NCBI GenBank assembly: GCA_963842885.1
Contig: CAWJIE010000002.1
Span: 32,001 to 96,000 of the forward strand
From: an uncultured Nitrososphaerota archaeon
GTDB taxonomy: Archaea; Thermoproteota; Nitrososphaeria; Conexivisphaerales; DTJL01
DNA: 64,000 nt
Direction: 5' to 3'
A program made the position numbers and the translations under genes. Below are positions 37,007 to 64,000 of this stretch, piece after piece; positions within the stretch are counted from its first letter, which is position 1, and the number at the start of each line of letters is the position of its first letter. The notes under the pieces were generated by a model. It did no database searches. It had not been told where the DNA came from and saw nothing but the letters and a program-made list of their open reading frames with translations.

Positions 37007-37010
37007 AACC

Positions 37011-38192: not shown

Positions 38193-38230
38193 ATCAAATC
38201 ACCAATTCATTCACCGACCGAATTGAGCTA

Positions 38231-43526: not shown

Positions 43527-43672
43527 AGTGAGAATCCACCATGGTTGGACTTCCGACGAAAGTAAGGCCGCGATGGAGATGACTAAAGTATGATTGGCAG
43601 ACCAGCGATAACCCGCTCATCAATCGTAATCCGACCAGAATTGCATCCGGCCGTATCGGGTTGAACCCGATA

Positions 43673-44779: not shown

Positions 44780-44786
44780 TTCCGGT

Positions 44787-45938: not shown

Positions 45939-46354
45939 TTACGCCCAGAGCCCAAAGGACTTGAGGCTGAAACGGTTCTACCAATATGGTGTACTGTGGT
46001 AAAATTGGCCTTCGGCGACGCGATTCTAATAAAAGCAGGGTCGCTTGCTGCGCTAGCACGCGAAATGTCGAAGTGGCCCACCGGTTTGGCAAGTGGCCGA
46101 AATGCGCGCATTAACCCAAACCAGAAAGTAGGTGCCTCAAGTCCGGGAGACTTGGATGCAATCACTCCATAAACAAACATGTTCCTTCGTTCGGCGCCCA
46201 TTGCATCATGAGGATTAGATGCGATCAGTTTGTGGACCTTATGACCTATATCGGCTAGCTCCGTTGTTAGGTTGTGAGTGTAGATCCAGTCACCGTCCTT
46301 GATCAGCGGAAGGTGCTCGTAGGTCACGGAGCAGCCTCTCATGGTGTTTCCCAC
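45935..46354 (-). pseudogene. Truncated GT4-like N-terminal fragment
   Basis: YTHNLTTELADIGHKVH...TTVHH is present; the C-terminal domain is absent. Confidence 0.5.
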
Positions 46355-46384
46355 ATGATTGGCATAAGGACCGATAATGGCACG

Positions 46385-47551: not shown

Positions 47552-48072
47552 TGTTTCTTCTTGCCCTTCAAATGCAAGCTGTCCGGCAGGAAGGGTATTC
47601 CCTTGTACCCAAACACGATGCGACTGATGTCTTGTATTCCCAAGTCCTGAAGAAGCCTCTTCAAAAGACCATACGAGAAGCCGCTCTTGTGAAAGTTGAA
47701 CTCATCATCCTGCTCCCCGTAGATGTTGACTATGTCCTTCCATGTAGGGCGCAGCGCGAACAGCAACGCTCTTGCGCGCAGGTCTGGGCATCGGATTTCG
47801 AAGACTCCTCCCGGGCGTAGGACTCTCACCCATTCTTCTAGGACGCTCCTAACCTCTCGATGCCCAAAATGCTCTAAGCTGTGACTGCTAAAGACAAGAA
47901 CGAAGGAACTGTCTCTGAACGGCAGTCTAGAGGCATCGGCCAAGACCCTTGCCCCTCGCGTGGACCGAACGTCCAAGCCCAAGTGTCCCGCCCTTGGACT
48001 ATCTCCACACCCAATGTCGATAGACATTTCCGCGCTGTCGTAGAAGTCTTCAGACACAGCGTCAGAGCCCAA
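47548..48072 (-). CDS. Class I SAM-dependent methyltransferase
   Basis: Motifs IDIGCG, SHSLEH and RVLRPGG. Confidence 0.85.
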   Translation of the reverse strand: MGSDAVSEDFYDSAEMSIDIGCGDSPRAGHLGLDVRSTRGARVLADASRLPFRDSSFVLVFSSHSLEHFGHREVRSVLEEWVRVLRPGGVFEIRCPDLRARALLFALRPTWKDIVNIYGEQDDEFNFHKSGFSYGLLKRLLQDLGIQDISRIVFGYKGIPFLPDSLHLKGKKKQ

Positions 48073-49160
48073 CTAAGAAGTTCGTCGATGTGTTTGTCCC
48101 AGTTCACACCCGAATAGTTCTCCTTGAAGAGACGACGTGCCTGTTCCGACATGAAAGCGAGATGGTCCCGAACGTACCCCAACGCATAGATCCACGCTTC
48201 GGTAGGTGCATTCACAGATACCAAATAGCCTGTCTTCTTGTGTCGAACGAATTCTGGTAGGCCACCTGTGTCGCTCGATATGACAGGAGTGCCGTACATA
48301 TAGGAACCAAGGATCGCCGCACTCTGGGTCTCACGCAGGTACGGGGTGACTACAGCCAAGCTCTTTCGCATGAGCTCCCCAAAATACTCATCTGAAATGA
48401 CCTTGCCATCAACCAAGGTCAAGTTCTGGACCGTCCTAATGCTTTCGTCGGGTATCCTTAGTCTTGATATCACCAGAAATTGGAAGCCTAGGCGACGGTC
48501 ATTTGACAGCTCTGCCATGCCCATGAATGTGCTGAACCCCTTTGCCGGGACTATGGGGCCAACGAAGGTAACGTATTCCCTGGGAAGTTGCATAAGCTGG
48601 GCACCCAAGTCTTCGTACATCAAAGGAATGAGCAGTCTCTTTCCGGAATAATCAGGGAACCTCAGTTGCATCAGGCATGAAGCATACCCAGATGATACGA
48701 CTGCCTTGCCGGATTGATCAAGCATAAACGATTGTGCCCTGTCGAACAAGGTCAACCAGATTGCGGCCAGAATCCCATGTTTGGTCTTGCTCGCTACAAA
48801 CGGTTCATGTAGATGATACACAAACTGAGCTCCGTGCACCGCGGCAAGACGAGCGATGTAATGGTTGAGCGGGTGGTAGTTGAACATATAGACCATGGCA
48901 GGCGGCGATTCTCTGAATGCCCGCGATAGTTTCCCATAATTCCCCGCGTTGAGCATATCAAGCATCATGCTACCGATGCCCCTAGAACGCCCGACAAGCG
49001 TCGTCTTCTCCATCACATCCGCTGGAAGCAACGGGAGGTATTCTGCTCCAAACAGATACCTGACCCGGAACCCTCTCTTCTCAAGGGCATCCCCCAGGGC
49101 ACAGCAAAGTGACTTGTAGACGGGACTGAATTGGAGACTACCGATGTAGTAGGTCAGCAG
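47874..49160 (-). CDS. GT4-like glycosyltransferase (both ends uncertain)
   Basis: The frame is open upstream of the called TTG (YYIGSLQFSPVYKSLC) and contains PVISSDTGGLPE. The C-terminus overlaps the next gene by about 200 bp. Confidence 0.75.
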   Translation of the reverse strand: MLTYYIGSLQFSPVYKSLCCALGDALEKRGFRVRYLFGAEYLPLLPADVMEKTTLVGRSRGIGSMMLDMLNAGNYGKLSRAFRESPPAMVYMFNYHPLNHYIARLAAVHGAQFVYHLHEPFVASKTKHGILAAIWLTLFDRAQSFMLDQSGKAVVSSGYASCLMQLRFPDYSGKRLLIPLMYEDLGAQLMQLPREYVTFVGPIVPAKGFSTFMGMAELSNDRRLGFQFLVISRLRIPDESIRTVQNLTLVDGKVISDEYFGELMRKSLAVVTPYLRETQSAAILGSYMYGTPVISSDTGGLPEFVRHKKTGYLVSVNAPTEAWIYALGYVRDHLAFMSEQARRLFKENYSGVNWDKHIDELLSWALTLCLKTSTTARKCLSTLGVEIVQGRDTWAWTFGPREGQGSWPMPLDCRSETVPSFLSLAVTA

Positions 49161-49235
49161 TGCGACTCCCCCGGGTTAGCATGTCGACCCAGCTGTGCGC
49201 ACTCATTCTGTGGTCCACGCTACTTCCTAAGTAAT

Positions 49236-50420
49236 TCAGCAACTAGGCATCCCTGCTCCTTTGAGGTCAGCATTCTTCTCGACGTACCCTCTTCCGCTTT
49301 GACCATATCTGGCCGCGAGAGATGGGTCCTGCGCTATGGTCAGTATGGCACTGGCGAGGGCATCTGCATCGCCGGGGGCTACGACAAGACCCGATTGGGA
49401 TTGGCTGACAAACAAGCCAGGCATACCTCTGGAACAGACAACAATAGGCTTGCCGGCAGCCTGGTATTCGTACAACTTCGAAGAGATTCCCTTTTCCGTG
49501 TCTCCTAAGCCTGCAAGGGGTTGGATGAGGATGTCTGCATCGCACATCAGCCGAGCAGCTTGAGCCCTCGAAACTACTTCCCTGACCATTCTGACGTTAC
49601 TCAGTCTCCTCCCTGCGATTTCGCTATCAATCTGCTCGGCGCGTTCTCCGTCTCCCCTGAGCGTGAATGTGATATCTCTGTGGCCTCTGAGCAGTTCAGC
49701 AGCTCGAAGTACTTGTCCGAAATCGTAGGCCGAAGAAAAGGCACCGATATACAGGACGCTGACCGTTTCCTGACGATTCTTGGATGTTCTGCCTCCACGA
49801 AACAAAGCAAGGTCAACGCCTCCTGGAATGACGACCAACTTCGACGTGCTGACATCATACTTGTGGGAGATCACGTCGACGTAGGCTGGGCTAATGGGGG
49901 CCATATAATTCGAAAGACCGTAGGCTAACCTTGCCACAGACTCAGCTACTCTTTGAAGCAGACCAGAGTTCAGCATCCCCAAGTCGTAAAGCGACTCCGG
50001 CCAAAGGTCATCTACGTTCAGAATCATCCGGCACCTGAATCTTGTCCGGTAGACCAAAGCCGGAAAGGCCACGAGTACCTGAGGGTTTGAAGCGAACACG
50101 CCGTCCACCCCATCTAAGAATGCGATTGGGAACAGGGACGACAGCATAAAGCAGAAGAACAGGACGAAGCGCCTGACAAGGCCTTTGGATGCCAGAGGGG
50201 GGACATAGGTGCGTATGACATCGATGCGGTTCATCCGTTCGAACACCAAGGCTCTGTGCCTGTAGCTCTTCGGGACGTTCCCTGAAGGATAGTGAGGGAA
50301 ACCCGCAATCACCGTCACCTTGACACCGTTGGCGGCAAGGCCTTTGGCGACGTTGAACGCCCTGGTCGCGCCGCCACCAAGGTCTGGTGGATATATCTCC
50401 GAGAGTATCAGCACGTGCAT
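49236..50420 (-). CDS. GT4 glycosyltransferase, WbuB-like
   Basis: Motifs YPPDLGG, PHYPSG, DLWPES and SKLYEYQAAGKP. Confidence 0.9.
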   Translation of the reverse strand: MHVLILSEIYPPDLGGGATRAFNVAKGLAANGVKVTVIAGFPHYPSGNVPKSYRHRALVFERMNRIDVIRTYVPPLASKGLVRRFVLFFCFMLSSLFPIAFLDGVDGVFASNPQVLVAFPALVYRTRFRCRMILNVDDLWPESLYDLGMLNSGLLQRVAESVARLAYGLSNYMAPISPAYVDVISHKYDVSTSKLVVIPGGVDLALFRGGRTSKNRQETVSVLYIGAFSSAYDFGQVLRAAELLRGHRDITFTLRGDGERAEQIDSEIAGRRLSNVRMVREVVSRAQAARLMCDADILIQPLAGLGDTEKGISSKLYEYQAAGKPIVVCSRGMPGLFVSQSQSGLVVAPGDADALASAILTIAQDPSLAARYGQSGRGYVEKNADLKGAGMPSC

Positions 50421-51503
50421 CTAATCACGTTGTATACTCTCTATGATCGCGCTATTCTGTCGAATCCAAGTGAGAGTAAGCAAAAGACCGTTGTGAAATG
50501 CAGTCCTCGGATTATAGCCCAGCAAGGCTCTCGCCTTTTCGATGGAGGCTCTTCGCCGACCAGACTTATCCCAGTCTCTCCTGCCACGGAAAACCACCCC
50601 TCCCTTGCTCTCGGTGAGCTCATTGACCTCATTCGCGAGGTCCAGGATCTTCGTCTCGGTCCCTGACGCCAGGTTCACTGCTTCGCCAACGGCTTCAGGG
50701 AGGACACCCATTCGGAGAGACCCGTCCACTACGTCATCTACATACGTGAAGTCCCTGGTCTCTTCACCCGTCCCGGTGATCGGCAGTGGCTTCCCGTGCA
50801 TCGCCCACCAGATGAAATTCGGAATCACGTCTCTGTATTTCCCTGGCACCTCTCCCGGACCAAAGACGTTGAAGTACCTGCAAATGGCAACGGGGAATCG
50901 ATAGTAGTCATGGTAGTAATTGCAGTAGAGTTCGCCCACAAGCTTGTTCATCTGATAAGGAGTGTCAAGATGGAGAGTGACGAAGCTCTCCTCCAGGGGA
51001 AGCGGCGCGTTGCTTCCATAGACAGAGCAACCCGACGACGCGTAAACGACCCTCTCCGCCCCGGCCTTTCTCGACAGCTCGAGGATGCGAAGGGTGCCAA
51101 GCCCGTTGACCATCAGGTCCGATTCGGGATGCTCGACGCTGTTCTGGTTGGCGAAGTGAGCTGCAAGATGGAAAACGACCTGTGGGCTCTGAGCGAAGAC
51201 CTCCCCAGTCTTCCCTTCGTCTAGAATGCTGCCCCTGACGAACTCCACCCGAGGGTCCTTGGGTATGTTCCACTCATAGGAGGCCGAGAGGTCATCAAGG
51301 ACGATTATCTTCTTGGTGCCCGTGCCAAGCAAAGCCTTGGTCAGGTTGCTCCCAATCATCCCGGCACCTCCCGTAATGAGGACCGTCTTCCCTGCGTAGG
51401 AATCCAGGACCTCCTGCGAGCTTGGCGCTATCTCATTCACCAATTCCGTAAATCTTCCTGAACCACTTGACCGTATTGTCGATGCCCTCTTCGGGTTCGA
51501 CAT
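50421..51503 (-). CDS. NAD-dependent epimerase/dehydratase
   Basis: Motifs TGGAGMIG, YQMNK, RYFNVFGP and RDFTYV. Confidence 0.92.
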   Translation of the reverse strand: MSNPKRASTIRSSGSGRFTELVNEIAPSSQEVLDSYAGKTVLITGGAGMIGSNLTKALLGTGTKKIIVLDDLSASYEWNIPKDPRVEFVRGSILDEGKTGEVFAQSPQVVFHLAAHFANQNSVEHPESDLMVNGLGTLRILELSRKAGAERVVYASSGCSVYGSNAPLPLEESFVTLHLDTPYQMNKLVGELYCNYYHDYYRFPVAICRYFNVFGPGEVPGKYRDVIPNFIWWAMHGKPLPITGTGEETRDFTYVDDVVDGSLRMGVLPEAVGEAVNLASGTETKILDLANEVNELTESKGGVVFRGRRDWDKSGRRRASIEKARALLGYNPRTAFHNGLLLTLTWIRQNSAIIESIQRD

Positions 51504-52350
51504 AGAACTTCAAACCCAGGTCTCTGACCGCCTTCGCGGAGTCGGGCGTCTTGACTCTGGTCGTGAACCCTTCGGCGTCCTTGTAGGTCACAAGCGAGTC
51601 ATCCCGACCGACGGTCCTGAGCACGATGTCCGAGACCTCCTTGATGTCATACTGCCGGGAGCTCCCCAGGTTGTAGACCTCGCCAGGCTTGAATCTGTCA
51701 GCGATCTGAGAGAAGGCTACGCAAATGTCGTCGACATATTCGAGGGTCCGCTTGTGCCCCTTGTATACGGTGTAAGGCTGGCCGATCAAGGCGTGGTAGA
51801 TGAACTTGGGAACGAACCCCCTGTAGGGAGTGTAGTGCTCCCCCGGGCCGTAGACGTTGAACAGGCGCACCCTCACGGTCTCCGTCCCGAACATGGAGGC
51901 CGAATTCAGGATCTGCATCTCGTTGACCCACTTGGACATCGCGTAGTCGTTCATCTGTTTCAGCGGGACCTTCTCCATGACCTCCTCGGACATCACACCG
52001 TCGTAGTCGCCGTACACCTCCGCGCTGCCGAAGAAGACCATCCTGAACTTCTTTCGTTCCTGCATCCTGAGGATGTTCTTCGTCCCTATGGCGTTGGTCC
52101 TCCACATGTTCTCGTAATAATCCTCGCCGTTCCACCTCCCGTATTCCGCTGCGGCATGGTACACTAGGTCGAATCCTTGGTCGAGGAGCTTCTCGATCTG
52201 GCGGAACTCGCCCACATCGCAACGGACGTAGTTCGGCCCAGCCGAGTTCCGGAGGTCGCAGCACCACACTTCATGGCCTCTGGTTCGCAGTTCCTTGACC
52301 AGGTTCGAGCCGATGAAACCCAGTCCTCCCGTGACGAGTATCTTGCTCAT
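51433..52350 (-). CDS. NAD-dependent epimerase/dehydratase (dTDP-glucose 4,6-dehydratase-like)
   Basis: Motifs TGGLGFIG, YAMSK and RLFNVYGPGE. Confidence 0.92.
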   Translation of the reverse strand: MSKILVTGGLGFIGSNLVKELRTRGHEVWCCDLRNSAGPNYVRCDVGEFRQIEKLLDQGFDLVYHAAAEYGRWNGEDYYENMWRTNAIGTKNILRMQERKKFRMVFFGSAEVYGDYDGVMSEEVMEKVPLKQMNDYAMSKWVNEMQILNSASMFGTETVRVRLFNVYGPGEHYTPYRGFVPKFIYHALIGQPYTVYKGHKRTLEYVDDICVAFSQIADRFKPGEVYNLGSSRQYDIKEVSDIVLRTVGRDDSLVTYKDAEGFTTRVKTPDSAKAVRDLGLKFYVEPEEGIDNTVKWFRKIYGIGE

Positions 52351-52365
52351 ATCGCGCACCTGACC

Positions 52366-53340
52366 CTAGTCCGTTCTCCTGATCTCAAGCTCTCTGAACC
52401 TCCGGTTAAGAGCGTTCAGGAAGAGGGCCAGAGAACCCAACACCAACCCCACGAGTATCGCCGCGATGGCCAGAAGAGCGGTACCCACGGCCAGTTGTCT
52501 GGTGTTGTTGAATATCACCACGACCTGGAAGAACGCCGCCAACCCTACCAAGAAAGAAGCCATGCCGGGAACGCCGACGTAAACGAGAGGTCGCCCCTCG
52601 GTCACCAGCCTGATCATCGACATCACGAGGCCCGCGCCATGGGAAATAGGGTTCTTCTTGGATGTCTTTCCTCCCGTGTTATACTCGATGAGGGAAGGCA
52701 CCTCAACAATCTTGAACCCCGCCTTCTTGGCCTTCATCAGGATGGAGAGGGAGGCCCCCATCCCCTGCTCGAGCATCATGGGCGCTATCGAGGAGATCGC
52801 CCTCCCGCTGTAGGCCCTGAACCCGCTCTGGGTGTCGGAGACGTCCACCCCCGCCATTCCGCTGGCCATCCTGTTGACCGACTCTATCCCCGCCTTCCTG
52901 TACCCGCTGGCCCCGTTCCCCCCCTCGACGAACCTGGAGCCTATCACCACGTCGGCCTGCGACTTCAGGATGGGCTCCACGAGGGAGGGTATCTCCCGGG
53001 GGTCGTGCTGCCCGTCGGCGTCGAGCGAGACCACGACGGCGGGATCGAACGCAAGCGCTTCGAGGAAGGCGCTCTTCAGCGCCGCGCCGTAACCCTCGTT
53101 CTGGCCATGGTGGACGACCCTGGCCCCTATCCTCTCGGCGATCTCCGCCGTCATGTCGGTGGAGCCGTCGTCGCAGACGATCACCTTGTCCACGAACTTT
53201 CCCGCCTGCAGGACCACCTTCGCTATCGTCTTCTCCTCGTTATAGGCGGGGATGCAGGCGACGACGGCAGCCCCCTTCCGCAGGGGCTCCCACTCTCCCG
53301 CCGGTGAGCTCATGTGTTCCATCCGGTCTTCATCATGCAA
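52366..53340 (-). CDS. GT2 glycosyltransferase (Dol-P-sugar synthase-like) with 2 C-terminal TMs
   Basis: Motifs IPAYNEE, DDGSTD, DADGQH and DTQSGFRA. Confidence 0.92.
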   Translation of the reverse strand: MHDEDRMEHMSSPAGEWEPLRKGAAVVACIPAYNEEKTIAKVVLQAGKFVDKVIVCDDGSTDMTAEIAERIGARVVHHGQNEGYGAALKSAFLEALAFDPAVVVSLDADGQHDPREIPSLVEPILKSQADVVIGSRFVEGGNGASGYRKAGIESVNRMASGMAGVDVSDTQSGFRAYSGRAISSIAPMMLEQGMGASLSILMKAKKAGFKIVEVPSLIEYNTGGKTSKKNPISHGAGLVMSMIRLVTEGRPLVYVGVPGMASFLVGLAAFFQVVVIFNNTRQLAVGTALLAIAAILVGLVLGSLALFLNALNRRFRELEIRRTD

Positions 53341-53390
53341 ACGTGTTTCCCCCGCCCATCATTGCAGGGCCTTCCGGCAGGAGGTCCCCA

Positions 53391-54311
53391 CTACTCCCTC
53401 CTCCCTCGGGAGGAGTGCCTGACGGAGTAGGTGACGATGTACGAAACCATGAAGGCCATGCCGAAGATGACGGAGGTCAGCCCTATCACGCCCCTGACCC
53501 CCTGGGTGACCGTGATCTGCTTTGTGTAGTAGAAGGAGATGAGGAACGCGGCCAGCAGCCATACGCCAGCGAGGGTGAAGGCGAGGGCCGGGACCCCCAT
53601 GGCGAGGAAGTCCCTTTCGAGGATGGACCTGGAGAGGCGATTCCATCCGCGCGCCGGCCTGGACGGAGACACTGCCGTGACTCCAGGCGCGACCGGTCGG
53701 GCCTTAAGGGTCCTCAGGGTGACGGCCCTGACCCTCAGGCCCGCGACCGCGGCGAGGGCGGTCTCAGGGGAGGTCCCCGCCTCCGAGAAGAAGCCCTCCT
53801 TGGTGAGAGCATAGAGCGCCTTCGGACTCATGGCCGTGACTCCCGCATCGACCGCCCCGATCCCACCCGTCCCGCTCATGCCGACGGCGATGTCCGCTTC
53901 GTCCTTCATGATGGGCCCGAGGACGACAGCTACCTCGTCGGCGTGGCCGAAGCCCTCCCTCTCTACCAGCACGAAGCCTGAGGGGGACTTGAGGATGACT
54001 TCGTTCACGACGTCCGACATGCTCCTCCCCTTCCCCAGGCTCGTCTCGTGGCGTATCACCTGGGCGCCGGCCCTCCTGGCTTCCTCCGACGTCCCGTCCG
54101 TGGAGCCGTCGTCGCAGACTATGACGTTCCCGCAGTGGCCCAGGGCCTGCAGCACGACCCTCGCCATGCTGGCCTCGTCGTTGTACGCCAGGATGCAGGC
54201 ATAGGTGCTCTCGAACCTGGCCCTCTCCTCCCTTGGAACTGTGACCTCCCTGGCCCTTAGGCCCGGGGGCGAGACCGGCGTGCTCATCTGCTCATCTTCA
54301 TGTCCTGTCAT
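53391..54311 (-). CDS. Divergent GT2-like protein lacking the DxD motif
   Basis: AYNDE and DDGSTD are present; DADGQH is replaced by EREGFGH. Confidence 0.75.
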   Translation of the reverse strand: MTGHEDEQMSTPVSPPGLRAREVTVPREERARFESTYACILAYNDEASMARVVLQALGHCGNVIVCDDGSTDGTSEEARRAGAQVIRHETSLGKGRSMSDVVNEVILKSPSGFVLVEREGFGHADEVAVVLGPIMKDEADIAVGMSGTGGIGAVDAGVTAMSPKALYALTKEGFFSEAGTSPETALAAVAGLRVRAVTLRTLKARPVAPGVTAVSPSRPARGWNRLSRSILERDFLAMGVPALAFTLAGVWLLAAFLISFYYTKQITVTQGVRGVIGLTSVIFGMAFMVSYIVTYSVRHSSRGRRE

Positions 54312-54314
54312 CTA

Positions 54315-54675
54315 TTAGCGTTGCCGGCAGGGAGAGCTCCCTCCCAGGCTGTTGACGCCCAGGAGGAGGAGGTAGTCCCTGTTTTCGGCCCAGGCGGAGG
54401 CCGAGGAGTTGCCCATGGCCATCGCCGCGCGCACGTTCGCAGCGGCCAGTGGGCGTCCCATGGAGAGCGCCTTGGTCAGGAAGGAGGGCGAGAGCCAGAG
54501 AGAGGCCTTCGCGAAGATCGATGCCAGCGCAGACGTCAGGAACCTGCTCCTGACCTGAAGGTTGAGCCGGCAGCAGAGGTGGAGTATCCCTCTCTCCACC
54601 GGGTTCAGGGCGATATGCAGAACCCGCTGCCTGACAAGACGCCGTTCGAGGAGGTGCAGGTCTTCCGTGAGAACA
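54315..54675 (-). CDS. Small basic helical hypothetical protein heading the glycosylation cluster (start uncertain)
   Basis: ALNPVERGILHLC...GNSSASAWA; host-like codon usage. It resembles a conserved archaeal hypothetical family I recall, unverified. Confidence 0.55.
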
Positions 54676-54991
54676 GCTTCGGCTGCGCTATGGAGTCGAA
54701 CCACATCAGAGTCTCTCTTTGGCGTTACAATCTCGGAGCCGAACGCATCCTTTAACCTTATCGAATCGAGAGGGCATGAGCTTGTCACACATGAGGGAAG
54801 AGTTGAGGTCTCTGCGGCCAGTTGTCTCAAACGAAAGCTGGAGGACGTCAACACCCCTCGGTGATGATTTCGGTGCTGGTGCTGCGAGCGAACTTTAGGT
54901 TTTGTAGTCCAGTACTCGCCTGGAAACTTGGCAATGTAGTAGCCCGGGAAGGTATCAAAAGGATAAGTTCGATTATACAGCGATTATCCTT
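54676..54991 (-). ncRNA. Candidate structured non-coding element with tRNA-like T-arm, copy 1
   Basis: 316-bp ungapped repeat of 58236-58551, with 36 mismatches by manual count. The minus strand has TGTGG-TTCGACT-CCATA inside TTCGGCT...AGCCGAA. Confidence 0.5.
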
Positions 54992-55001
54992 CGGTACGGG
55001 T

Positions 55002-55412
55002 TTAGGTCCCAGCCAAGACCTCGCGGGTGTTCAGAACCCGGAGGCGGTTCTGCCTTTTGAAGTCCTTGTCATCGCTCCAAATAGCCTCACAAGAGGAAGC
55101 CAGGGCCGCGGCGACGAAAGGGGTGTCATCTCTGTCTACCGACCCGATAATGCTCTCCGCCTCGCTCCAACGCACAAGCACCTCTTCTTTGGACACCACT
55201 CGCAAGTTGGTCGCAAGGATGCCAAGAAACAGACGGATTTCCCCTTCGTCGAGACCTGTCTTCTTCTCCAGTGTGTCGATGTGCTTCTCAATCTCTTCAA
55301 AGGCATACTCTGGGACGAAATAGTCGTTGGCAGGGTTCAGGAGGGTGGCCCTCACCAAGGAATCCTTGATGAGAGCCTTCATCAGGACGTTAGTGTCGAC
55401 GAGCAGTTTCAA
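55002..55412 (-). CDS. vapC: PIN-domain toxin (VapC family)
   Basis: Motifs [17 protein letters not shown] and IWSDDKDF. Confidence 0.9.
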
Positions 55413-55648
55413 GAGCCGGGCACTTTGTCTTTACGATACTTCGCAGCCATTCCCTTTTTGATGGAATCGCCTAGGGCACGAGCCTCGGGCTCCGTCAGCA
55501 TGCTCTTCCGAGCTATAGCGTCGAACAGGTCGAGCCTTCTAGCGTACTCCCAAATCGCCTGCCTGGCTACTTCGCTCCACTTGATCTCGGGATGGGACTT
55601 CATTATCCTGTGTAGGTCCTCAGGGACGGCCAGAGTGACATTTACCAT
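55409..55648 (-). CDS. vapB: RHH-type antitoxin (VapB-like)
   Basis: [13 protein letters not shown]...[11 protein letters not shown]; overlaps the toxin start by 4 bp. Confidence 0.85.
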
Positions 55649-56046
55649 ATCTTCTGTGTGTTATGTGCAGGCACGTATTTATGTATTTGTTGAACATCAG
55701 ATTCGTACAGTCATGAGGAAGAACGGGAGACTATTGCGCTTGTTCATCGCAGGTCTCATGTCCACGCCCTGGGAGCCACGAATCGGGCAGTATTCATGCC
55801 CAAATGGGTTCGACTCCGGAAGCGGCGATGTAGAAATGGCATGAAGCAAACCACTATCACTAGAAAGACACAGGAAACAGCAAGGGAATCATAGGATCAA
55901 CAGATCGGTTTGACAAACGAGGTCCAGACGAGTCGTCTTTTGCGTGAGTCGGCCTGTCTTCTCGAGATGAAGGGGGAATTGGGGATTGATGTCAGGATAG
56001 TTGGCCTATCATGGTCATTGGCGGTCGCGCCGTGGTAGTCGACGTC

Positions 56047-56487
56047 TTACTTCTCTATGTGTTCCCTTATCTCGCGTAGCAGCTCAGGGTTCTTCTGGAG
56101 GAAATCGACCAGCCCTTCCAACCTGTTGATGGTCTCGGGTTGGATGTGATGCTCTATCCCTTCCGTGTCCTGGTTGGCCACCTTATCCTCCACGCCGAGC
56201 ATCAAGAGTAATTCCGAGATCGTGCTGTGCCTCGCAATCACTGACCTCGCGACCTTGGCGCCCTTGTCGGTCAGCTTGATGCCCCGATAGGGCACGTGCA
56301 CCAAGTAGCCCCTTGCGGCGAGCCTCTCCAGCATGCTCGACACTGACGGAGGTCTGACTTGAAGGTTCTCTGCGATGTCGACCGTGCTCGCATAGCCCTT
56401 GTCCTGGACAAGATGGTAGATCGCCTTGAGATAGTCCTCCAGCCTCGACGTCCGTTCCTCCGGCGCCATCTGGGTCGCCTTTGCCAA
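56047..56487 (-). CDS. mntR: DtxR/MntR family metal-dependent repressor
   Basis: Motifs EDYLKAIY, SVSSML, LTDKG, RH and EGIEHH. Confidence 0.92.
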   Translation of the reverse strand: MAKATQMAPEERTSRLEDYLKAIYHLVQDKGYASTVDIAENLQVRPPSVSSMLERLAARGYLVHVPYRGIKLTDKGAKVARSVIARHSTISELLLMLGVEDKVANQDTEGIEHHIQPETINRLEGLVDFLQKNPELLREIREHIEK

Positions 56488-56545
56488 CTGGTCCCCCGCT
56501 GCAAGAGAAGAAAGCCCTCACTCATTAAAAAGGATTCTCAATTGA

Positions 56546-56606
56546 TTAGGGAATACTAAACAAAGACGGGTACTCTAATTATATTAGATTCACCTAAACT
56601 TAAATA
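56546..56606. promoter_or_regulatory. Two DtxR-type operators (TTAG-N6-CTAA) and a TATA box in the divergent mntR/mntH promoter
   Basis: TTAGGGAATACTAA at 56546-56559, TTAGATTCACCTAA at 56584-56597, TTAAATA at 56600-56606. Confidence 0.7.
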
Positions 56607-56634
56607 GTACCCCCTCCCTAGGCGATGCGAAACC

Positions 56635-57933
56635 TTGTCCGCACCCTCGAATGACGCTCTCCAGTCGCCCGAGCGAGAAGCCGAGGAAGAGGCGGCAAGG
56701 CGCAGCGGAACCGGATGGTCCGCCTACCTCAAGTTCTTCGGTCCGGCCGTCATGGCATCCGTCGCCTACATCGACCCGGGGAACTTCGGGACCGACATCT
56801 CGGCCGGAGCAAAGTACGGCTACCTGCTGCTGTGGTCGGTCATGCTCGCCAACCTCATGGGGATGCTGCTCCAGTACCTCTCGGGGAAGCTGGGGATAGC
56901 CACCGGCCAGTCGCTCGCCGAACTGACAAGGCAGAGCCTCGGCAGCCGTGCGAAGGTGATACCGTACTGGCTGGCGAGCGAGGTGTTCGCACTGTTCACC
57001 GACCTGGCGGAGTTCCTGGGGGTGACTTCAGCGTTATACCTGCTCTCCGACGGAGCGGTGCCGCTTCTTGTGGCGGCCTGGATTTCGGCCTTCGACGTGG
57101 TCGTGGTCTTCGCCATCGCCGGCAAGAGGTTCCGGAGGATCGAGCTGATGATAACTACGCTCGTGTTCGGCATCGGCCTCGGTTACATATACGAAATCTT
57201 CCTGGTGAAGCCCGACGCCGCCTCGATCGGCCGTGGGCTCATAATCCCCACGATAGCCAGCAATGCGCAGCTGTTCCTGGTGGTCGGGATCATCGGGGCG
57301 ACGGTCATGCCTCATGCCCTCGTGCTCCACTCGTCTCTCACCAAAGCCAAGGCGGTCGGGATGGACGTGGACCAGAGGAAGAAGCTCTTGAAACTCCACA
57401 GATGGGACACGATAGCGAACCTGACTGTGGCGGGGCTGATCAACATGGCGATCCTGATAATGGCCGCCGCCGCGTTCTTCGCAGCTGGACTCAACGTCGC
57501 CACCATCAACGATGCCTACAAGACGCTGGTGCCCCTCTTCGGACTGTCCGCGAGCGTGGTCTTCGCGCTGACGCTTCTCTTCTCCGGGTGGGCCTCCTCG
57601 ACGGTGGGCGTGTTGGCGGGGCAGACGATACTGGAGGGACTTCTGGGGTCGAAGCTTAATCCGTGGTACAGGAGGATCGTCCTTAGGGTGATAAACGTCG
57701 TGCCGGCGAGCATCGCGATAACCCTGGGCTTCGATCCCCTTGTGCTCCTCGTCTACAGCCAGGTGGTGCTCAGCCTGCTGATACCGCTCCCGCTCATCCC
57801 ACTGATCTACTATACCTCCCGCAAGAAATTCATGGGCCAGTTCGTGAACAGGCACAGCATAACCTTCCTGGCGATAGTGGTGGCAGCCACCATCGTAGGC
57901 CTGAACGCGGTCCTCCTTTATACTTCCATTTGA
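56635..57933 (+). CDS. mntH: Nramp family Mn2+/Fe2+ transporter
   Basis: AYIDPGN and GATVMPH signatures. Confidence 0.95.
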   Translation: MSAPSNDALQSPEREAEEEAARRSGTGWSAYLKFFGPAVMASVAYIDPGNFGTDISAGAKYGYLLLWSVMLANLMGMLLQYLSGKLGIATGQSLAELTRQSLGSRAKVIPYWLASEVFALFTDLAEFLGVTSALYLLSDGAVPLLVAAWISAFDVVVVFAIAGKRFRRIELMITTLVFGIGLGYIYEIFLVKPDAASIGRGLIIPTIASNAQLFLVVGIIGATVMPHALVLHSSLTKAKAVGMDVDQRKKLLKLHRWDTIANLTVAGLINMAILIMAAAAFFAAGLNVATINDAYKTLVPLFGLSASVVFALTLLFSGWASSTVGVLAGQTILEGLLGSKLNPWYRRIVLRVINVVPASIAITLGFDPLVLLVYSQVVLSLLIPLPLIPLIYYTSRKKFMGQFVNRHSITFLAIVVAATIVGLNAVLLYTSI

Positions 57934-58235
57934 GAAGGGGAGATAGAGAGATGAACTCTTCAGGAGGGGGGTGGGAGGCTAAAGGAACTTCGTCGACGAG
58001 CCTCGCCATGACCTCCCTGAACGAGAAGCTCGATTATGCTGTGTCTTAGCCCGACAGTTGGGCTCGAAGGGGCTCATGCCGAATTGGGTTCAAACCCCTA
58101 TCCTCAAGTTACCCGATTCTCGAGAAGCAGGCCGTCAGTCTCATCCTATTGCCACCGACATCCTCTGTTCTAGTCATCGAACTGTACGGCGAGCCGGTTA
58201 CCCAAGTCATAATAAGCCGTTAGGGCATCAACACG

Positions 58236-58551
58236 GCTTCGGCTGCGCTATGGAGTCGAACCACATCAGATACTCTCTTTGGCGTTACAATCTCGGAGCC
58301 GGACGCGTCCTTTAACCTTATCGAATCGAGACGGCGTGAACCTGTCACACATGGGGGAAGAGCTGAAACCTCTACGGCCTGCTGTTTCAAGCGAAAGCTG
58401 GGGGACGTCAATACCCCTCGGTGATGATTTCGGTGCTGGTGCTGCGGGCGAACTTAAGGTCTTGTAGTTCAGTACTGGCCCGTCAACTTGGCAATGTGGT
58501 AGCCCGGGAAGGCGTCGAAAGGAAAAGTTCGATCATACAGAGTTTATCCTT
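58236..58551 (-). ncRNA. Candidate structured non-coding element, copy 2
   Basis: Direct repeat of 54676-54991 at offset 3560; the T-arm is invariant. Confidence 0.5.
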
Positions 58552-58724
58552 GCTGTAGGAACTGGAGGGATTAGCACCTGTCTGGGTTCATCGTTAAATT
58601 CGTCTCATCAGGATTCCAGCTTCTTGAATCAACGCCCAGGTGCTGAGAGTGGTAGACAGGAAGGCTTTGCGCCTATGCCTTTAAGATAGAATCATTAGAC
58701 GCGCCATTAACGTTTGGAGAGGGT

Positions 58725-60311
58725 TCATGGAATCCTCTCTTCGATCGATCGAGGCCTTGGCTGGCGGCGCCTTCTTAAGAGGAAGAAACCGGCCGCGACG
58801 ACCACGACTGCCACTGCCACCCCGCCCAGGATCAGCGTCGTAGTCGTAGTCGGCGTTGTTAGAGGGCCGCCCAAGGCGAACGGAGAACCCGATAGGGCCG
58901 CGACGAGAATGTCACCGCAGACCATGGTGCCGGGGGTGAAAGTTATGTTGGCTGCCTGGATCCATGAACCGTTCGAGTAATAGTCGATCACCGTGTTGGC
59001 ATCCGCATTGACATTTGACATGCAAAGGTGTGCGGTCCCTCCCGAGATTCCAGTTATGGCCAAGTCATAAAATCCGAATGAAGTGCTGTTGGACCCGTTG
59101 ACGCTCAATCCGCCCGTGTTCGTGGGCTGGCTGGTCAACTGCGAGGCGCTTATCTCCGCAGTAGACCCGGTCGTATCTGAGATGCTCACGTTCATTCCTA
59201 TGTTCATAAAGATCGCGGTGGAGGTAGATCCTGAAGTGACCGTGGCAGACGCCTGCTGGGTGGATTGGCAAGTTTCGACTATCGTTGGATTTCCCGTCAT
59301 CGTCCCCATATTGTTTATGACACCTCCGCCGTTGTTGAAGAGATAACCGGTGTTGTCGATCGTAGCTCCGGCGTTGTTATTCAGCGTACCGAGGATGCCC
59401 ATCGTATTGAAGTTGTTAAAGACACCATAGTTGTCGAAGGTCTCAGTGGTCCAGATGCCATTAGCTCCGTAGTTGTCAAAGGTACCGTAGTTATTGATCG
59501 TCGCAGATACAACTCCGTAGCTGTCAAGGGTACCATAGTTATTGATTACAACTCCAGGTGCAGCTCCGACATCGAAGAGTAGCGTGCCACTTTCGACTTC
59601 GACAGTGCCACCCACCTGGTTGTCAAGCGTGCCACCATTCCCATTCCCCATGCTGATTCCGGACTGGTCATCCAGAAGACCGGTGTTAGAAAAGACGCCG
59701 CCGATGTGCAGCCCAAATGGTTCGGGGGCGGAAGTGACAAACGTGCCGGAATTATCGACCGTGCCGTCCGTATTGATGCTAAAACCTCCAGAATTTGAAA
59801 TCGTGCCACTGTTAATTATCGTGCCATCAACGCTAGTAAAGTTGGACGTGTCAACCGTACCCGAATTGTTGGACGTGTCAATCGTACCCGAATTCAAGAG
59901 CGTGCTTCCTGGGCCTACGTTGAGCTGCCCACTGCTGTCAATCACTCCTCCGCTATCGACTGACACTACGCCAGCCGATACGTTAGATTCGTACACAGAA
60001 AATAAGCCAGAATTGTCTACAATGCCTTGAATAGTGATCATGTGATCGGTACCCAGGCTGGTGCCCGAGTCTATTTGGATGGTCGTTCCGGATGGAATTG
60101 TACTGCCAGGATACCCCACCTCACAATCATTTGTCGAATCATTCCAATTACCATTGAGCGGAGCCGCCACACAGCTATCGGCGTTCAATACGATTGTCGA
60201 CTGGGCATGCACAACTGGAGATGTAACTACGGGACCCAGGAACCCGGAGGCCGCCAGAAGAGCAAGCAGAAGGACCGCCTTCTTGTGCATTCCCAACCAT
60301 TGGACTCTCAT
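58725..60311 (-). CDS. Membrane-anchored surface protein with Gly/Asn-rich repeats, paralogue 2
   Basis: Same architecture and same SIEERIP C-terminus as 16906-18426. Confidence 0.8.
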   Translation of the reverse strand: MRVQWLGMHKKAVLLLALLAASGFLGPVVTSPVVHAQSTIVLNADSCVAAPLNGNWNDSTNDCEVGYPGSTIPSGTTIQIDSGTSLGTDHMITIQGIVDNSGLFSVYESNVSAGVVSVDSGGVIDSSGQLNVGPGSTLLNSGTIDTSNNSGTVDTSNFTSVDGTIINSGTISNSGGFSINTDGTVDNSGTFVTSAPEPFGLHIGGVFSNTGLLDDQSGISMGNGNGGTLDNQVGGTVEVESGTLLFDVGAAPGVVINNYGTLDSYGVVSATINNYGTFDNYGANGIWTTETFDNYGVFNNFNTMGILGTLNNNAGATIDNTGYLFNNGGGVINNMGTMTGNPTIVETCQSTQQASATVTSGSTSTAIFMNIGMNVSISDTTGSTAEISASQLTSQPTNTGGLSVNGSNSTSFGFYDLAITGISGGTAHLCMSNVNADANTVIDYYSNGSWIQAANITFTPGTMVCGDILVAALSGSPFALGGPLTTPTTTTTLILGGVAVAVVVVAAGFFLLRRRRQPRPRSIEERIP

Positions 60312-60575
60312 GGAAGACCGTTATTTAAGAGCGCTAGTCCAGTTTTGGTTATGCTACCGAAAACTGAGGAGAGGGTGCCCGGCGCCCTTCCGGCAGCGAG
60401 TTTGGTGGGATTCGGCCTCAGTTGGGTACTTGGAACCGCTAGAAATCGGATTCCCGTCAAGCTTCAACTGGCAAGCCACACCGAGAGTTCGCGAGACTCG
60501 ATTGTGGTTAGACCAACAGACAAGCCTGGATTGATGGCCTGAGAGATTCATAGCTTTGCTTAACCAAGGTGAAGA

Positions 60576-60628
60576 TAGCCCGGGAAGGCATCGAAAGGAA
60601 AAGTTCGATCATACGGCGTCTATCCTTC
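60576..60628 (-). repeat. Partial third copy (about 50 bp) of the 316-bp element
   Basis: TAGCCCGGGAAGGCATCGAAAGGAAAAGTTCGATCATAC...TATCCTT matches 58500-58551. Confidence 0.75.
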
Positions 60629-60746
60629 CGGGAGCAAGACCGATTTGCCGAGGTACCAAGGTAATTAGACATTTCCTTTGCTATAGGAAAGTGAAGTTGT
60701 TTTGAGTCGGAAGCGTAGTTACAGTCCCCAGACCTAAGTGATTTAA

Positions 60747-61310
60747 GTGGGGGACATGGGGCCCACTCTGGCGATTGACGTGCAGAGAAGAACGGTTGGG
60801 ATAGGGCTAGTCGTCTTCGTAATCGGGATTGCATTGGTCATCGGCGGCGCCCTCGGAGCGCTCGGTTCAGTAAATATCAACAGGACATTCACCCAGCCGC
60901 AGCCCGGGGAATATGTCTCGGCCGAGATAATGCTGAACACCACCTCAGATCTTGTGGTGTCATCTCCCGCTTCTGTGGGTGGAATCATCTATGCCCAAGA
61001 CCTGAACCAGGTGAACTCGACGGACGTCAGTGCGTACGCCATCCCCTACAACTCGACGGGAGCGGGAAGCGCCATCTACAAGTCGCTCAGCGGAGACTTC
61101 TATTACGTTGCTTTCTCCTCAGCCCAGCCCGGCAGTACCATCGTAGCTACGCCTCTGAGGTCAGCTGCGCGCGGGTACGGAGCGCTCGTCCTGCTAGGAA
61201 TAGTCTGCGTGATAGTGGGAATCGTAGTCGCGGCGGTGGGCGCGTTCCGCAAGAGCAAGGCGCCAGTTCACGAAACGGCCGAAGCATGGATAGAGTCGCA
61301 GAAGGCTTAA
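60747..61310 (+). CDS. Hypothetical membrane protein (N- and C-terminal TM)
   Basis: 187-aa ORF with TTTAAG upstream. Confidence 0.7.
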   Translation: MGDMGPTLAIDVQRRTVGIGLVVFVIGIALVIGGALGALGSVNINRTFTQPQPGEYVSAEIMLNTTSDLVVSSPASVGGIIYAQDLNQVNSTDVSAYAIPYNSTGAGSAIYKSLSGDFYYVAFSSAQPGSTIVATPLRSAARGYGALVLLGIVCVIVGIVVAAVGAFRKSKAPVHETAEAWIESQKA

Positions 61311-61584
61311 GCGAATCTTCACGCAGACGCCCTCCGCAGAGTGGCACGCCCCGAAACGACGCGCATCTTTTGGTGCCGATGCGCAGCTCGACCTTGTGGG
61401 GTTCGGAATCGCCCACGTTGAACTCATACTTCCTTGGGCCCAGCCACAAGTGTTGGCTGTCTGTTAGTTCCTTGCCATCGACTTCGACCTTGATCCTGCC
61501 GAGCCAGAGACCGCCTGAGTGGTCGACAGCGACGACATGTCTTTCCTTGGTGCCTATCGTGAACCTCGCGCTACCCACATCCAC
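61147..61584 (-). CDS. Small beta-rich hypothetical protein (3' end doubtful)
   Basis: The first ~70 aa look protein-like (KERHVVAVD...IKVEVDGKE...YEFNVGDSEPH); the tail overlaps a convergent gene. Confidence 0.4.
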   Translation of the reverse strand: MDVGSARFTIGTKERHVVAVDHSGGLWLGRIKVEVDGKELTDSQHLWLGPRKYEFNVGDSEPHKVELRIGTKRCASFRGVPLCGGRLREDSLKPSATLSMLRPFRELAPCSCGTRPPPRLRFPLSRRLFLAGRALRTRAQLTSEA

Positions 61585-61622
61585 TCTATCGGTATGCCGA
61601 ACCGCTATTTACGGGCCCCAAT

Positions 61623-61866
61623 TCACAGCTCAACCATCTCTTTCAATTCTACACATTCTTGTAGCTCAACTCGTTCCTGTAACTCAACACGTTCTTGTAG
61701 TTCGACGCATTCCTGAAGTCCAACTCGTTCTTGTAATTCAACTCATTCTTGAAATTCAACACGTTCCTGTAATTCAACTCGTTCCTGAAGCTCAACTCGT
61801 TCCTGTAGTCCAATTCGTTCCTGTAATTCAACTCGTTCCGTCTGTTCAACGCGAACTCGTATTTCA
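61623..61866 (-). repeat. 18-bp tandem repeat (~12 units); decayed coding repeat (VELQER)n
   Basis: The + strand unit is CAACTCGTTCCTGTAATT. Variation is mostly synonymous in the minus-strand frame GTT GAA TTA CAG GAA CGA. There is one CGA>TGA stop at 61743-61745. Confidence 0.85.
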
Positions 61867-61890
61867 GTTTAATCCACGCTACCACCACCA

Positions 61891-61906
61891 TTCGCAGACC
61901 AAGCCC
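61891..61906 (+). repeat. Degenerate junction core
   Basis: TTCGCAGACCAAGCCC followed by ACGCCCG, as at 13168. Confidence 0.7.
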
Positions 61907-61938
61907 ACGCCCGAGATGGCTGATTGAGGAAACCGGCT

Positions 61939-62748
61939 TTATTTGACTATGAAGTACAGAAGGACCAATTGTCCCCATTCGTCACCGCCCGCCATGGTGT
62001 AAAACCCTGGGGCGAACTTTTGCACTTGACTCGGTGGGTAGTTGTAATTCAGATATGTGCCTTGCAAGGGGAACGATCCCGAGACGGGAGCTGTCCAATT
62101 GTTTCCATATGGCTCCCATGTCTTGTTTCCTGAAGGTTGCCAGTACTCAAAGGCGGTGGCGTTGTCGCTCAGGGGCTGAAAGACGAAATATCCGACAGAA
62201 AGAGGAAGGGAGGCTGTCACTCGCGGGATGGTGATTAATGCTTGCGCAGATGAGACATTATCGGGTACATAGTAGCCGCTATAGATGGCAAGCGCCATCG
62301 GAGTGAGGTAAAGGTCTGTCGGAAAGGGTTCCCCACCTGGAAAAGGCAATGGGATGCTCGTGTAGTTGGTTGCCCACCAACTACTCGTGACGTTGTTCGT
62401 CGAGAAGAGGGTGTTCGTTTCGCTCATGGTGACCATTATGGCTCCTCCACTTGGAACCGAAGTTGAGTTGATGGTCAGGCTAAGCTTCAATCCAGTAGAA
62501 GTGCTCGTGACGCTTGTTGTATTGGTCAAGCTGGAAGGATTGAGAGGATACGAGATTGCGCCTGTATGGTTAGGCGCAAGGACATACGCTGCGGCTCCAA
62601 CCAAGAGGACTGCCAACAAGGCGACCGCGACTACTCCGTATGGCGCCAGCAGTCGCCTCCGCTTGGGTGGCAATTCGACGTTGACACTCTGGCCGAGGCC
62701 TTGGCCTGACACAGATGATTGGTACACAAGACTCGGATATAACGCCAT
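61939..62748 (-). CDS. Hypothetical membrane-anchored secreted protein
   Basis: TM helix after KRRR, S/T-rich, C-terminal GGDEWGQLVLLYF; bracketed by junction cores. Confidence 0.7.
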   Translation of the reverse strand: MALYPSLVYQSSVSGQGLGQSVNVELPPKRRRLLAPYGVVAVALLAVLLVGAAAYVLAPNHTGAISYPLNPSSLTNTTSVTSTSTGLKLSLTINSTSVPSGGAIMVTMSETNTLFSTNNVTSSWWATNYTSIPLPFPGGEPFPTDLYLTPMALAIYSGYYVPDNVSSAQALITIPRVTASLPLSVGYFVFQPLSDNATAFEYWQPSGNKTWEPYGNNWTAPVSGSFPLQGTYLNYNYPPSQVQKFAPGFYTMAGGDEWGQLVLLYFIVK

Positions 62749-62791
62749 ACCTGTGGACAGCCCCTCCTCGGCCCAGCACCCTTGTCCTATC

Positions 62792-62858
62792 CCAGTTAAC
62801 CTATTGTTTTCAATGACACAACGATGTACCGTCAGCCCATCTTCGCAGGTCCAAGCCC
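62792..62858 (+). repeat. Junction site, type B arm + core
   Basis: CCAGTTAACCTATTGTTTTCAATGACACAACGATG...GTCAGCCCATCTTCGCAGGTCCAAGCCC. Confidence 0.85.
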
Positions 62859-62896
62859 ACGTCCAAGGTCGAGGTCGTGTGCACGGATGTCCAGCT

Positions 62897-63655
62897 TTAA
62901 GAGGACTTTGCCCACGGTCCGGTTGCCCACGAACTGTGCAAAGTTCGCATGAGATAGAGAGCCGCGTACAAAGAAGATGAAATTAGCAGCAAGGACAAGA
63001 GAGTTCTTTGCGAATAGTCAAACGAAGCCGTGAAGATGTAGACGCTGTGGTAGCCAATATATTCAAGGAACGCAAATCTCAATCCGAATCCTACGGCACT
63101 GGCTAGAACGAATCTGACCGCACTCATCTTCAGCGTCCCTGCGGCCAAGGAAGTGACGCTGTAGAAGTACGGTATGAAGGTGGATATGAAAATGGAGAAA
63201 TGGCCGTGTTCTGCCAACCATCTATCGGCAGCCTCGATGTCCTTCTCGGATATATCGACATAGGACAGGCCCTTCAGCAGTATCCGTCTGCCCGCAAATC
63301 TGCCAGGGACGTATTCTATCGGAAGCACGGCGGCCGCGAGGCATACCAAAAACGTCGTATACGGATCGAATACCCGTATTGATGACAGATAACCATATGC
63401 CGGAACGAGAAGGTAATCAGGTATTGGTAGAAAGGCGAGGCTGACGAACATGCCGATATAACCCGCTAACAGGAGTGGCGACGAATAGCCCACCTTGCTG
63501 ATATCATAGGACGATATGTTAGCGAAATGGAGATAGGCGTTCAGCAGGGCCAGGGCGCTCAGCGATATGACGAGCATCGAAATCACGAAAAGATAGTGCC
63601 AATATTTGTAAGGCAGAGCATGTTCGCCTCCTCTGAACCGGTGTGTTGCGCTCAT
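62897..63655 (-). CDS. DedA/VTT family membrane protein
   Basis: Motifs LPIPDYLL...G, Y..GRFAGR, W...HG...IFISTFIP and AGTLKMS. Confidence 0.8.
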   Translation of the reverse strand: MSATHRFRGGEHALPYKYWHYLFVISMLVISLSALALLNAYLHFANISSYDISKVGYSSPLLLAGYIGMFVSLAFLPIPDYLLVPAYGYLSSIRVFDPYTTFLVCLAAAVLPIEYVPGRFAGRRILLKGLSYVDISEKDIEAADRWLAEHGHFSIFISTFIPYFYSVTSLAAGTLKMSAVRFVLASAVGFGLRFAFLEYIGYHSVYIFTASFDYSQRTLLSLLLISSSLYAALYLMRTLHSSWATGPWAKSS

Positions 63656-63805
63656 TCATCGTTCTCTCCGCATCTCAGGAACTGTCGTGTCGTTCGAAAC
63701 GATTTACTACGTTACGTATTTAGTTTTTGAGGGGCTCTTCTTCAGGGCGTACCTCAACCAGCCCTACGTCTGAATGATTCTGTGACCGTCGTTAGCGTAA
63801 ACACT

Positions 63806-63833
63806 GTTTGACCAAGCTACAGGTTGGGCAAAC
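63806..63833 (+). repeat. Type A inverted repeat without core (copy 3)
   Basis: GTTTGACCAAG-CTACAG-GTTGGGCAAAC. Confidence 0.7.
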
Positions 63834-64000
63834 TTAAGAACCAATAACAGTCATAGGCTATCCTTCCGCCCTCGTTCAGATAACCTATAGATAATCGCAG
63901 ATTTGCTAGCCAAACTCAAGCGACGTGCCGAAGCCCAGAAGGAAGAATGTATTTATAGACGCTTCTCGAGGTTTTCATGGTATCACAGAATGCCTTCTTC

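Follow-up and report, generated by a model that had tools for sequence, protein, structure and literature searches.

A probable duplicated junction between a tRNA-Gln-derived repeat and the first gene of a glycan cluster in an uncultured Conexivisphaerales archaeon

The locus and its duplicated unit

The window considered here is a stretch of 64,000 nucleotides (nt) from an uncultured archaeon of the order Conexivisphaerales (assembly GCA_963842885.1, contig CAWJIE010000002.1, positions 32,001 to 96,000), and our subject is a unit of about 319 nt that occurs twice within it and heads, in one of its copies, a cluster of glycan genes. The source genome (G000) is a metagenome assembly of 2.03 Mb in 11 contigs, 87% complete, and the genomes of its relatives are fragmented. 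A repeat search pairs 54673-54972 with 58233-58532 at 89% identity over 300 nt without gaps. Alignment extends the two copies, both on the minus strand, to 54673-54991 and 58233-58551, ungapped and with 37 mismatches (88% identity by BLAST, spacing 3560 nt), and they are the only copies of the long unit in the whole genome.

On the minus strand copy 1 leads into the gene of a small basic orphan protein (129 amino acids (aa), 54315-54704) and then into a co-oriented glycan cluster of about 18 kb (36149-54311, minus strand, assigned by Pfam), which holds two GT2 genes, epimerases, six GT4/Glycos_transf_1 genes, one of them with the Glycos_transf_1 domain only, a 1406-aa open reading frame (ORF) and a methyltransferase. 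Between the copies lie vapC with a PIN_2 domain (55002-55412, minus strand, Pfam), a 79-aa ORF upstream of it that is the probable antitoxin and has no Pfam match (55409-55648, minus strand), an mntR-type repressor (56047-56487, minus strand) and an Nramp/mntH transporter (56635-57933, plus strand). An earlier note, made from the letters of this DNA, had described two ungapped copies of about 89% identity that bracket vapBC and mntR/mntH, the first leading into a small basic protein and about 20 kb of glycan genes, and a 50-bp 5′ piece that recurs at 60576-60628. These observations hold, with a cluster of about 18 kb and a recurring piece of 53 nt.

Read along the minus strand, the unit runs from an attachment-site-like (att-like) repeat of about 55 nt through a strain-specific spacer of about 185 nt to a putative promoter, a short leader and a GTG start with ten codons. 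In copy 1 the repeat, made of a left arm and a tRNA-Gln-like core (54934-55003, minus strand; 80.9 bits with R1, a covariance model of the 70-nt repeat window), begins directly past the vapC stop codon. Its core at 54940-54959 (minus strand) is a copied tRNA-Gln 3′ end and includes the 13-mer CCTTCCCGGGCTA. The spacer, called right arm 'i' (54756-54939, minus strand), has no further match elsewhere in the source genome or in relatives. It is followed by a TATA-like box, TTAAAG (54750-54755, minus strand), within GGTTAAAGG, a putative promoter recognised by alignment with orthologous loci, and by the GTG at 54704-54702. Identity between the two copies rises along this order, from 86% over arm, core and spacer (86% also for the spacer itself) to 92% from the TATA-like box to the GTG and 97% in the first codons.

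Copy 2 carries the repeat at 58494-58563 (minus strand, R1 80.8 bits) and a gene start at 58220-58264 (minus strand) that is a relic, because its frame keeps the ten shared codons and then stops after 14. Past this frame follow a 23-nt exact match to the arm at C5:98782, a fourth-arm fragment (58024-58046, minus strand), and the 3′ end of mntH. A third copy of the short repeat lies at 60570-60639 (minus strand, R1 match) and shares about 190 nt of right flank, at 74% identity, with a copy on contig C5.

Two coding readings were tried and rejected. Over the long unit the three codon phases have 9, 14 and 14 mismatches, and the stops differ between copies; in the open frame across the short repeat the changes are non-conservative, and one copy apparently has a stop. 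The earlier statement that no conserved ORF spans the element is correct for the whole and fails for its last 30 nt or so, which are the GTG start and the first ten codons.

By codon usage, the minus strand scores as coding in one frame between 54320 and 54620. The small protein has an isoelectric point of 11.3, and homologues are found in all nine genomes of the family, at 63-71% identity within the genus and 35-44% in sister genera. Aligned with its orthologues, it begins inside the duplicated unit with its N-terminus in frame. The GTG and the next nine codons are the same letters as the stem-loop TGTGG-TTCGACT-CCATA and the AGCCGAA arm that the earlier note had read as an invariant T-arm enclosed by T(T/C)CGGCT...AGCCGAA; the sequence is there, and the 'T-arm' is a start codon with the codons after it. 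The orthologue in G002 starts nine codons further upstream in the same frame, at an ATG that reads ACG in the source genome, so the region is coding or immediately 5′ of the coding sequence throughout the genus. The TATA-like box (54755-54750) aligns with TTAAAT, TTAAAG, CTTATC and TTATAT upstream of four orthologous genes. Between the tRNA-like core and this box nothing is common to the upstream regions in the four other genus genomes, with one exception: in G004, 28 nt left over from the repeat stand about 113 nt upstream of the gene (E 0.0067).

The protein itself has no match in Pfam (E <= 0.001), NCBIfam (E <= 1), PDB sequences or the ESM Atlas. A profile search gathers 23 protein clusters, none with a Pfam domain and every one named 'hypothetical protein' by its source; three NCBI names among them say Conexivisphaerales. 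An AlphaFold2 model (mean predicted local distance difference test score 80) is all-helical with seven helices. Foldseek finds nothing for it in the PDB at E <= 0.001, and VIA-align relates residues 1-72 to the C-terminal helix-turn-helix domain of WhiA with Z of 8.0 and 7.8; since such values lie within the range common for helical models, the resemblance is only a lead. Judged by these searches and the model, the protein is not NusG-like and has no NGN or KOW domains.

A paralogue is encoded at C5:260160-260495. Relatives in the source genome (this paralogue), G003 and G005 precede glycosyltransferase or DUF1616 genes, those in G006 and G007 precede sugar-precursor genes, and in G001 signalling genes follow. 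The earlier view of the protein as heading glycan genes is right here and for most relatives, though not for all. The proteins form an orphan family restricted to the order, often first in clusters with GT2/GT4, DUF1616, MoxR/DUF58 or sugar-precursor genes. In the repeat that looked like RNA, a tRNA-derived scar is joined to the first part of a genuine small gene for which no annotation can be given.

A repeat family that ends in tRNA-Gln sequence

The last 20-24 nt or so of the short repeat copy the 3′ end of tRNA-Gln. The core keeps the T-loop, the 3′ half of the T-stem, the 3′ acceptor strand and the discriminator, often the CCA as well, and its copies are without the 5′ strand of the T-stem. 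The left arm, the 35 nt upstream of the core, has no relation to tRNA and is conserved among copies all the same. The 13-mer of the core has nine sites in the 2.03-Mb source genome, against about 0.06 expected by chance on our own estimate. Five of them are copies of the repeat and two are remnants of tRNA 3′ ends; the other two are genes, one for tRNA-Gln(UUG) and one, interrupted by two introns, for tRNA-Gln(CUG). In both genes (C5:238426-238501 for the former; about C5:111820-111975, minus strand, or L012:17820-17975, for the latter) the 13-mer lies in the 3′ end.

The tRNA-Gln(CUG) gene deserves a note of its own. One intron, of about 24 nt, follows acceptor position 7, and a second, of about 52-56 nt, sits in the anticodon loop; the two-intron form is conserved in four genus genomes (G000:C5, G002:C75, G003:C52, G004:C126). 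ARAGORN misses it, and the Rfam tRNA model matches it in part (positions 9-63, the anticodon loop being extended by an insertion of 56 nt) at 22.1 bits, below the gathering score.

R1 finds 16 copies of the repeat in all five genus genomes (five in the source genome, two in G003, one each in G002 and G001, seven in G004) and none in four genomes from three sister genera, so that by sequence search the family is specific to this genus of Conexivisphaerales. The first 50 nt or so of the long unit recur at C2:146478-146528, at C5:98781-98830 and in two other genus genomes. The earlier note had seen this 5′ piece recur locally, and had missed that it belongs to a genus-wide repeat ending in the 3′ end of tRNA-Gln. 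The right flanks of the copies are of several unrelated types, some of them common between sites for 130-260 nt.

The orientation of the copies follows that of nearby tRNA-Gln genes. A copy lies 13 kb downstream of the intact tRNA-Gln(CUG) gene in the source genome, two lie 3.1 and 6.2 kb downstream of it in G003 (C52), and one lies 5.1 kb downstream of tRNA-Gln(UUG) in G001 (C29), each on the strand of the tRNA. All six local clusters with at least two sites are co-oriented, and three of them begin at an intact tRNA-Gln gene. The distant tRNA-Gln(UUG) gene of the source genome, on C5 and more than 120 kb off, is on the opposite strand.

Synteny breaks coincide with these sites. In four genus genomes homology covers an aminotransferase gene and tRNA-Gln(CUG) and ends exactly at the CCA. 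At the C2:146480 copy, homology with G002 and G004 sets in at a distance of about 50 nt on one flank, and the other flank has none. Wherever a copy was examined, synteny breaks there, and one flank is strain-specific DNA of several genes. The genes carried in this way are ordinary ones, for transporters, regulators and redox enzymes, together with a toxin-antitoxin pair. The junction between the vapC stop codon and the repeat is identical in the source genome and in G003. In four DNA runs from two studies, contigs of relatives were found at about 88-97% identity, holding few of the sampled words. Contigs from two runs of one study span vapBC and the repeat and then diverge just past the core, near 54925, leaving the spacer (54670-54923) uncovered, which hints, if weakly, at a variable flank next to the core.

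In addition, an AT-rich dispersed repeat of about 50 nt occurs at 2037-2084 of the window (minus strand) and in at least 13 other places of the source genome (for example C2:19087, C2:30804 and C3:547092), and also in G002 and G003. One copy stands about 70-120 nt downstream of tRNA-Gln(CUG) in the source genome, and a similar one downstream of tRNA-Gln(UUG) in G001. It may be related in kind to miniature inverted-repeat transposable elements (MITEs).

Proposed insertion at tRNA-Gln and its alternatives

We read the long unit as a duplicated junction, in which a tRNA-Gln-derived scar and a spacer adjoin the promoter and first codons of the gene that heads the glycan cluster, and put the probability of this account at about 70%. 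The short repeat looks like an att-type recombination scar, which would point to site-specific integration. Segments would first have entered at the tRNA-Gln 3′ end and later at scars already present, giving rise to co-oriented arrays. Copy 1 is then the working gene start and copy 2 a relic, and the 3.56-kb segment with mntH, mntR and vapBC would have come to lie between the two junctions through recombination, for which the scar or the 300 nt common to both copies could have served. Of the explanations offered in the earlier note, a mobile-element end is the one that these results favour, the 5′ piece being att-like, derived from the tRNA-Gln 3′ end and located at synteny breakpoints. Scars of this kind delimit strain-specific DNA in an archaeal order about which little is known.

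Several observations weigh against this account. Pfam scans of the neighbourhoods and genome scans with PF00589 and PF16795 found no integrase or recombinase in or beside any bracketed segment, and the tyrosine recombinases of the source genome (C5:9507-10703, C5:10877-11965 and C3:398627-400138) lie far from the repeats. Relatives of these recombinases occur in G002, G003 and sister genera and were not found in G001 (59% complete) or in G004, the genome with seven copies; their distribution does not follow that of the repeat, which speaks against them as factors acting in trans. The array in the window has no tRNA-Gln gene of its own there (ARAGORN), and one copy in the source genome sits between housekeeping-type genes. 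No clean empty site was seen in the relatives examined; downstream of tRNA-Gln(CUG), G002 has a short stretch like right arm 'iii', and tblastx shows no shared genes past the tRNA. A search of viral contigs for an attP form gave no match and revealed no circular or viral form, and metagenome contigs gave five matches, four of which resemble loci of G003 and G004. A constant left arm with right arms of unrelated types departs from the usual picture of one element family. Finally, the GTG is our best guess at the start from sequence, with ACG in the source genome where one orthologue has ATG, and we infer both the promoter function of TTAAAG and the transcription start from alignment; a look-up of RNA runs holding 53400-58600 of the window returned none.

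A separate observation concerns a tyrosine recombinase fragment, N-terminal, at C9:16624-17214, directly after a tRNA-Glu gene and at a contig end; it may be part of a real integrated element at another tRNA.

The copies might instead belong to a small non-autonomous mobile or dispersed repeat that arose from tRNA-Gln and spreads alone, similar to short interspersed elements or MITEs or of an intergenic kind, in which case the 316-nt copy would be a plain segmental duplication. The presence of copies away from tRNA-Gln on several contigs (in G004, seven copies on five contigs), the copy between housekeeping-type genes, the lack of an integrase linked to any copy and the existence of a second, AT-rich family dispersed in the same genomes all agree with such a repeat. 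It does not account well for the co-orientation of six out of six clusters, three of them starting from an intact tRNA-Gln, or for the position of all examined copies at synteny breaks beside multi-gene strain-specific DNA. Moreover, no terminal inverted repeats flank the copies, the two inverted pairs in 52-64 kb being unrelated (target-site duplications were not looked for), and no transposase family is among the Pfam matches. We regard this explanation as unlikely.

Another possibility is that the short repeat serves as the recombination site of an integron-like gene-capture platform that needs no integrase of the element's own, its recombinase acting in trans or being of an unrecognised type; we consider this quite unlikely. 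Room for it exists because no recombinase is linked to the sites, and the idea is prompted by right arms that vary beside a conserved 35-nt left arm, by strict co-orientation and by the same lack of integrases. Multi-gene segments, among them toxin-antitoxin, metal-transport and possibly glycan modules, would then be inserted and reshuffled where tRNA-Gln ends and where older copies of the site stand. No IntI-type integrase or attI was found beside the array: an aminotransferase gene precedes tRNA-Gln(CUG) in the source genome and G003, and C2 has no PF00589 match. A capture system of this kind, if true, would be an integron-like platform in non-ammonia-oxidising Nitrososphaerota.

Very unlikely, in our view, is a role of the short repeat as a regulatory DNA site or short functional RNA, be it an operator, a terminator-like element after vapC or a tRNA-like 3′ tag. 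Such a role would fit the strong conservation of the left arm with its inner palindrome ATCGAA...TTCGAT, which is lengthened by one partner change, and the way the repeat abuts the vapC stop codon in two genomes. On the other hand, RNAalifold predicts for the repeat alone 9 weak pairs, including a weak 6-bp inner palindrome, with no change on both sides; the copies are not placed in any fixed way with respect to the direction or the ends of the genes around them, and the synteny breaks downstream of tRNA-Gln would be left unexplained.

The earlier note had favoured an undescribed structured RNA, possibly an antitermination leader working with the small protein, and had proposed Rfam and ARAGORN searches as a check. 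These were run. An Rfam 15 scan of 52000-64000 at E <= 10 gives no match inside either copy, and the seven matches in the region are all far below gathering scores; ARAGORN predicts no tRNA gene in the window, and the Rfam tRNA model has no match in 52-64 kb. Folding is at the level of shuffled sequence: copy 1 reaches -84.5 kcal/mol compared with -84.2 for shuffles (z = -0.06, 46 of 100 equally good), and copy 2 folds worse than every shuffle (z = +2.72, 100 of 100 as good). Among 79 pairs predicted by RNAalifold for the two copies one is changed on both sides. The compensatory change reported before (TTGAG/CTCAA versus TTGAA/TTCAG) is real; it pairs nt 162-166 with nt 185-189 of the 316-nt unit, counted along the minus strand, and is the sole helix of at least 5 bp kept in both copies with a two-sided change. 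When the same 36 substitutions are placed at random, 653 of 1000 trials produce one or more such helices (mean 1.07), so the change is at chance level in a comparison that, with two sequences only, has low power. The T/C difference in T(T/C)CGGCT disrupts a pair in copy 2 without compensation. By the refutation rule that the earlier note itself had set, a lack of significant covariation, the structured-RNA reading falls, and its proposed partner is all-helical and not of the NusG/RfaH/LoaP type. The unit of 316-319 nt is most likely a duplicated DNA junction and not an RNA gene.

A minus-strand transcript of the unit that acts as a structured leader RNA and controls the glycan operon, perhaps by antitermination with the small protein, is extremely improbable: the unit's place directly before the first gene of an 18-kb co-oriented cluster, the high conservation of its 3′ 100 nt and the surface or glycan clusters headed by relatives of the small protein in several genomes speak for it, but the conserved 3′ part is accounted for by promoter and coding start, the sequence above the TATA-like box is not conserved in four orthologous loci, copy 2 leads into no gene, and to the absence of Rfam, folding and covariation signals comes a protein without NusG/KOW features. 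A new structured RNA over an archaeal glycan operon would have mattered; with the evidence against it, the remaining value is mainly one of annotation.

Further features of the window lie outside the unit. The central block of the glycan cluster (37000-51000) has about 50% GC compared with about 60% in its flanks, which suggests acquisition from elsewhere, and no att-like repeat copy lies at its borders. Between repeat copies 2 and 3, at 58725-60311 (minus strand), a 528-aa secreted or anchored protein without a Pfam match contains internal repeats with a high content of Gly, Asn, Thr and Ser. At least nine tandem 18-nt units at 61612-61863, with 60-78% identity to the reference unit, fall in overlapping ORFs on both strands and, being inside ORFs, may encode a hexapeptide-repeat protein. 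An AbiEii/AbiEi-type toxin-antitoxin pair (Pfam) is found at 4769-6195.

Comparison with known systems

In bacteria, EAR RNA with LoaP and ops with RfaH bring about processive antitermination of polysaccharide operons. As in those systems, a non-coding stretch and a small gene head a long co-oriented glycan cluster. The present unit differs in having no Rfam match, stable fold or covariation, in its archaeal host, in an all-helical partner without NGN or KOW domains, and in that the supposedly structured 3′ part is a putative promoter and coding start. With tRNA genes it shares the core, which runs from the T-loop to the discriminator of tRNA-Gln, and a second, hairpin-like TTCGA motif at the 3′ end of the unit. 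Unlike a tRNA gene, the core is without the 5′ strand of the T-stem and the second motif is the GTG start region, and ARAGORN and the Rfam tRNA model find no tRNA in the region searched.

In integron attC cassette arrays, reported archaeal integrons included, imperfectly palindromic repeats end the successive segments of a one-directional array. Here, too, repeat-ended segments come without a recombinase of their own, and the cargo includes a toxin-antitoxin pair. The array in question has, however, no adjoining IntI-type integrase or attI, its repeat derives from a tRNA end, and its segments are multi-gene, in both orientations and with their own promoters.

A close parallel is offered by the attL/attR/attP sites of archaeal integrated elements directed at tRNA 3′ ends, as described for thaumarchaea. 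In the survey by Krupovic et al. (2019, PMC6563490), 39 of 68 elements occupy the 3′ portion of a tRNA gene, and genes with introns are among these targets; att sites are mostly shorter than 26 bp, and repeated use of one site gives rise to arrays. Unlike those elements, the segments studied here have no integrase in or beside them, several copies lie far from tRNA-Gln, a constant 35-nt left arm is combined with unrelated right arms, and neither an empty site nor an excised form was found. The points of agreement concern the sites themselves: the core is the 3′-distal part of a tRNA and short (about 20-24 nt), the direct repeats are co-oriented with the tRNA gene, bracket variable cargo and form arrays, and the target is an intron-bearing tRNA.

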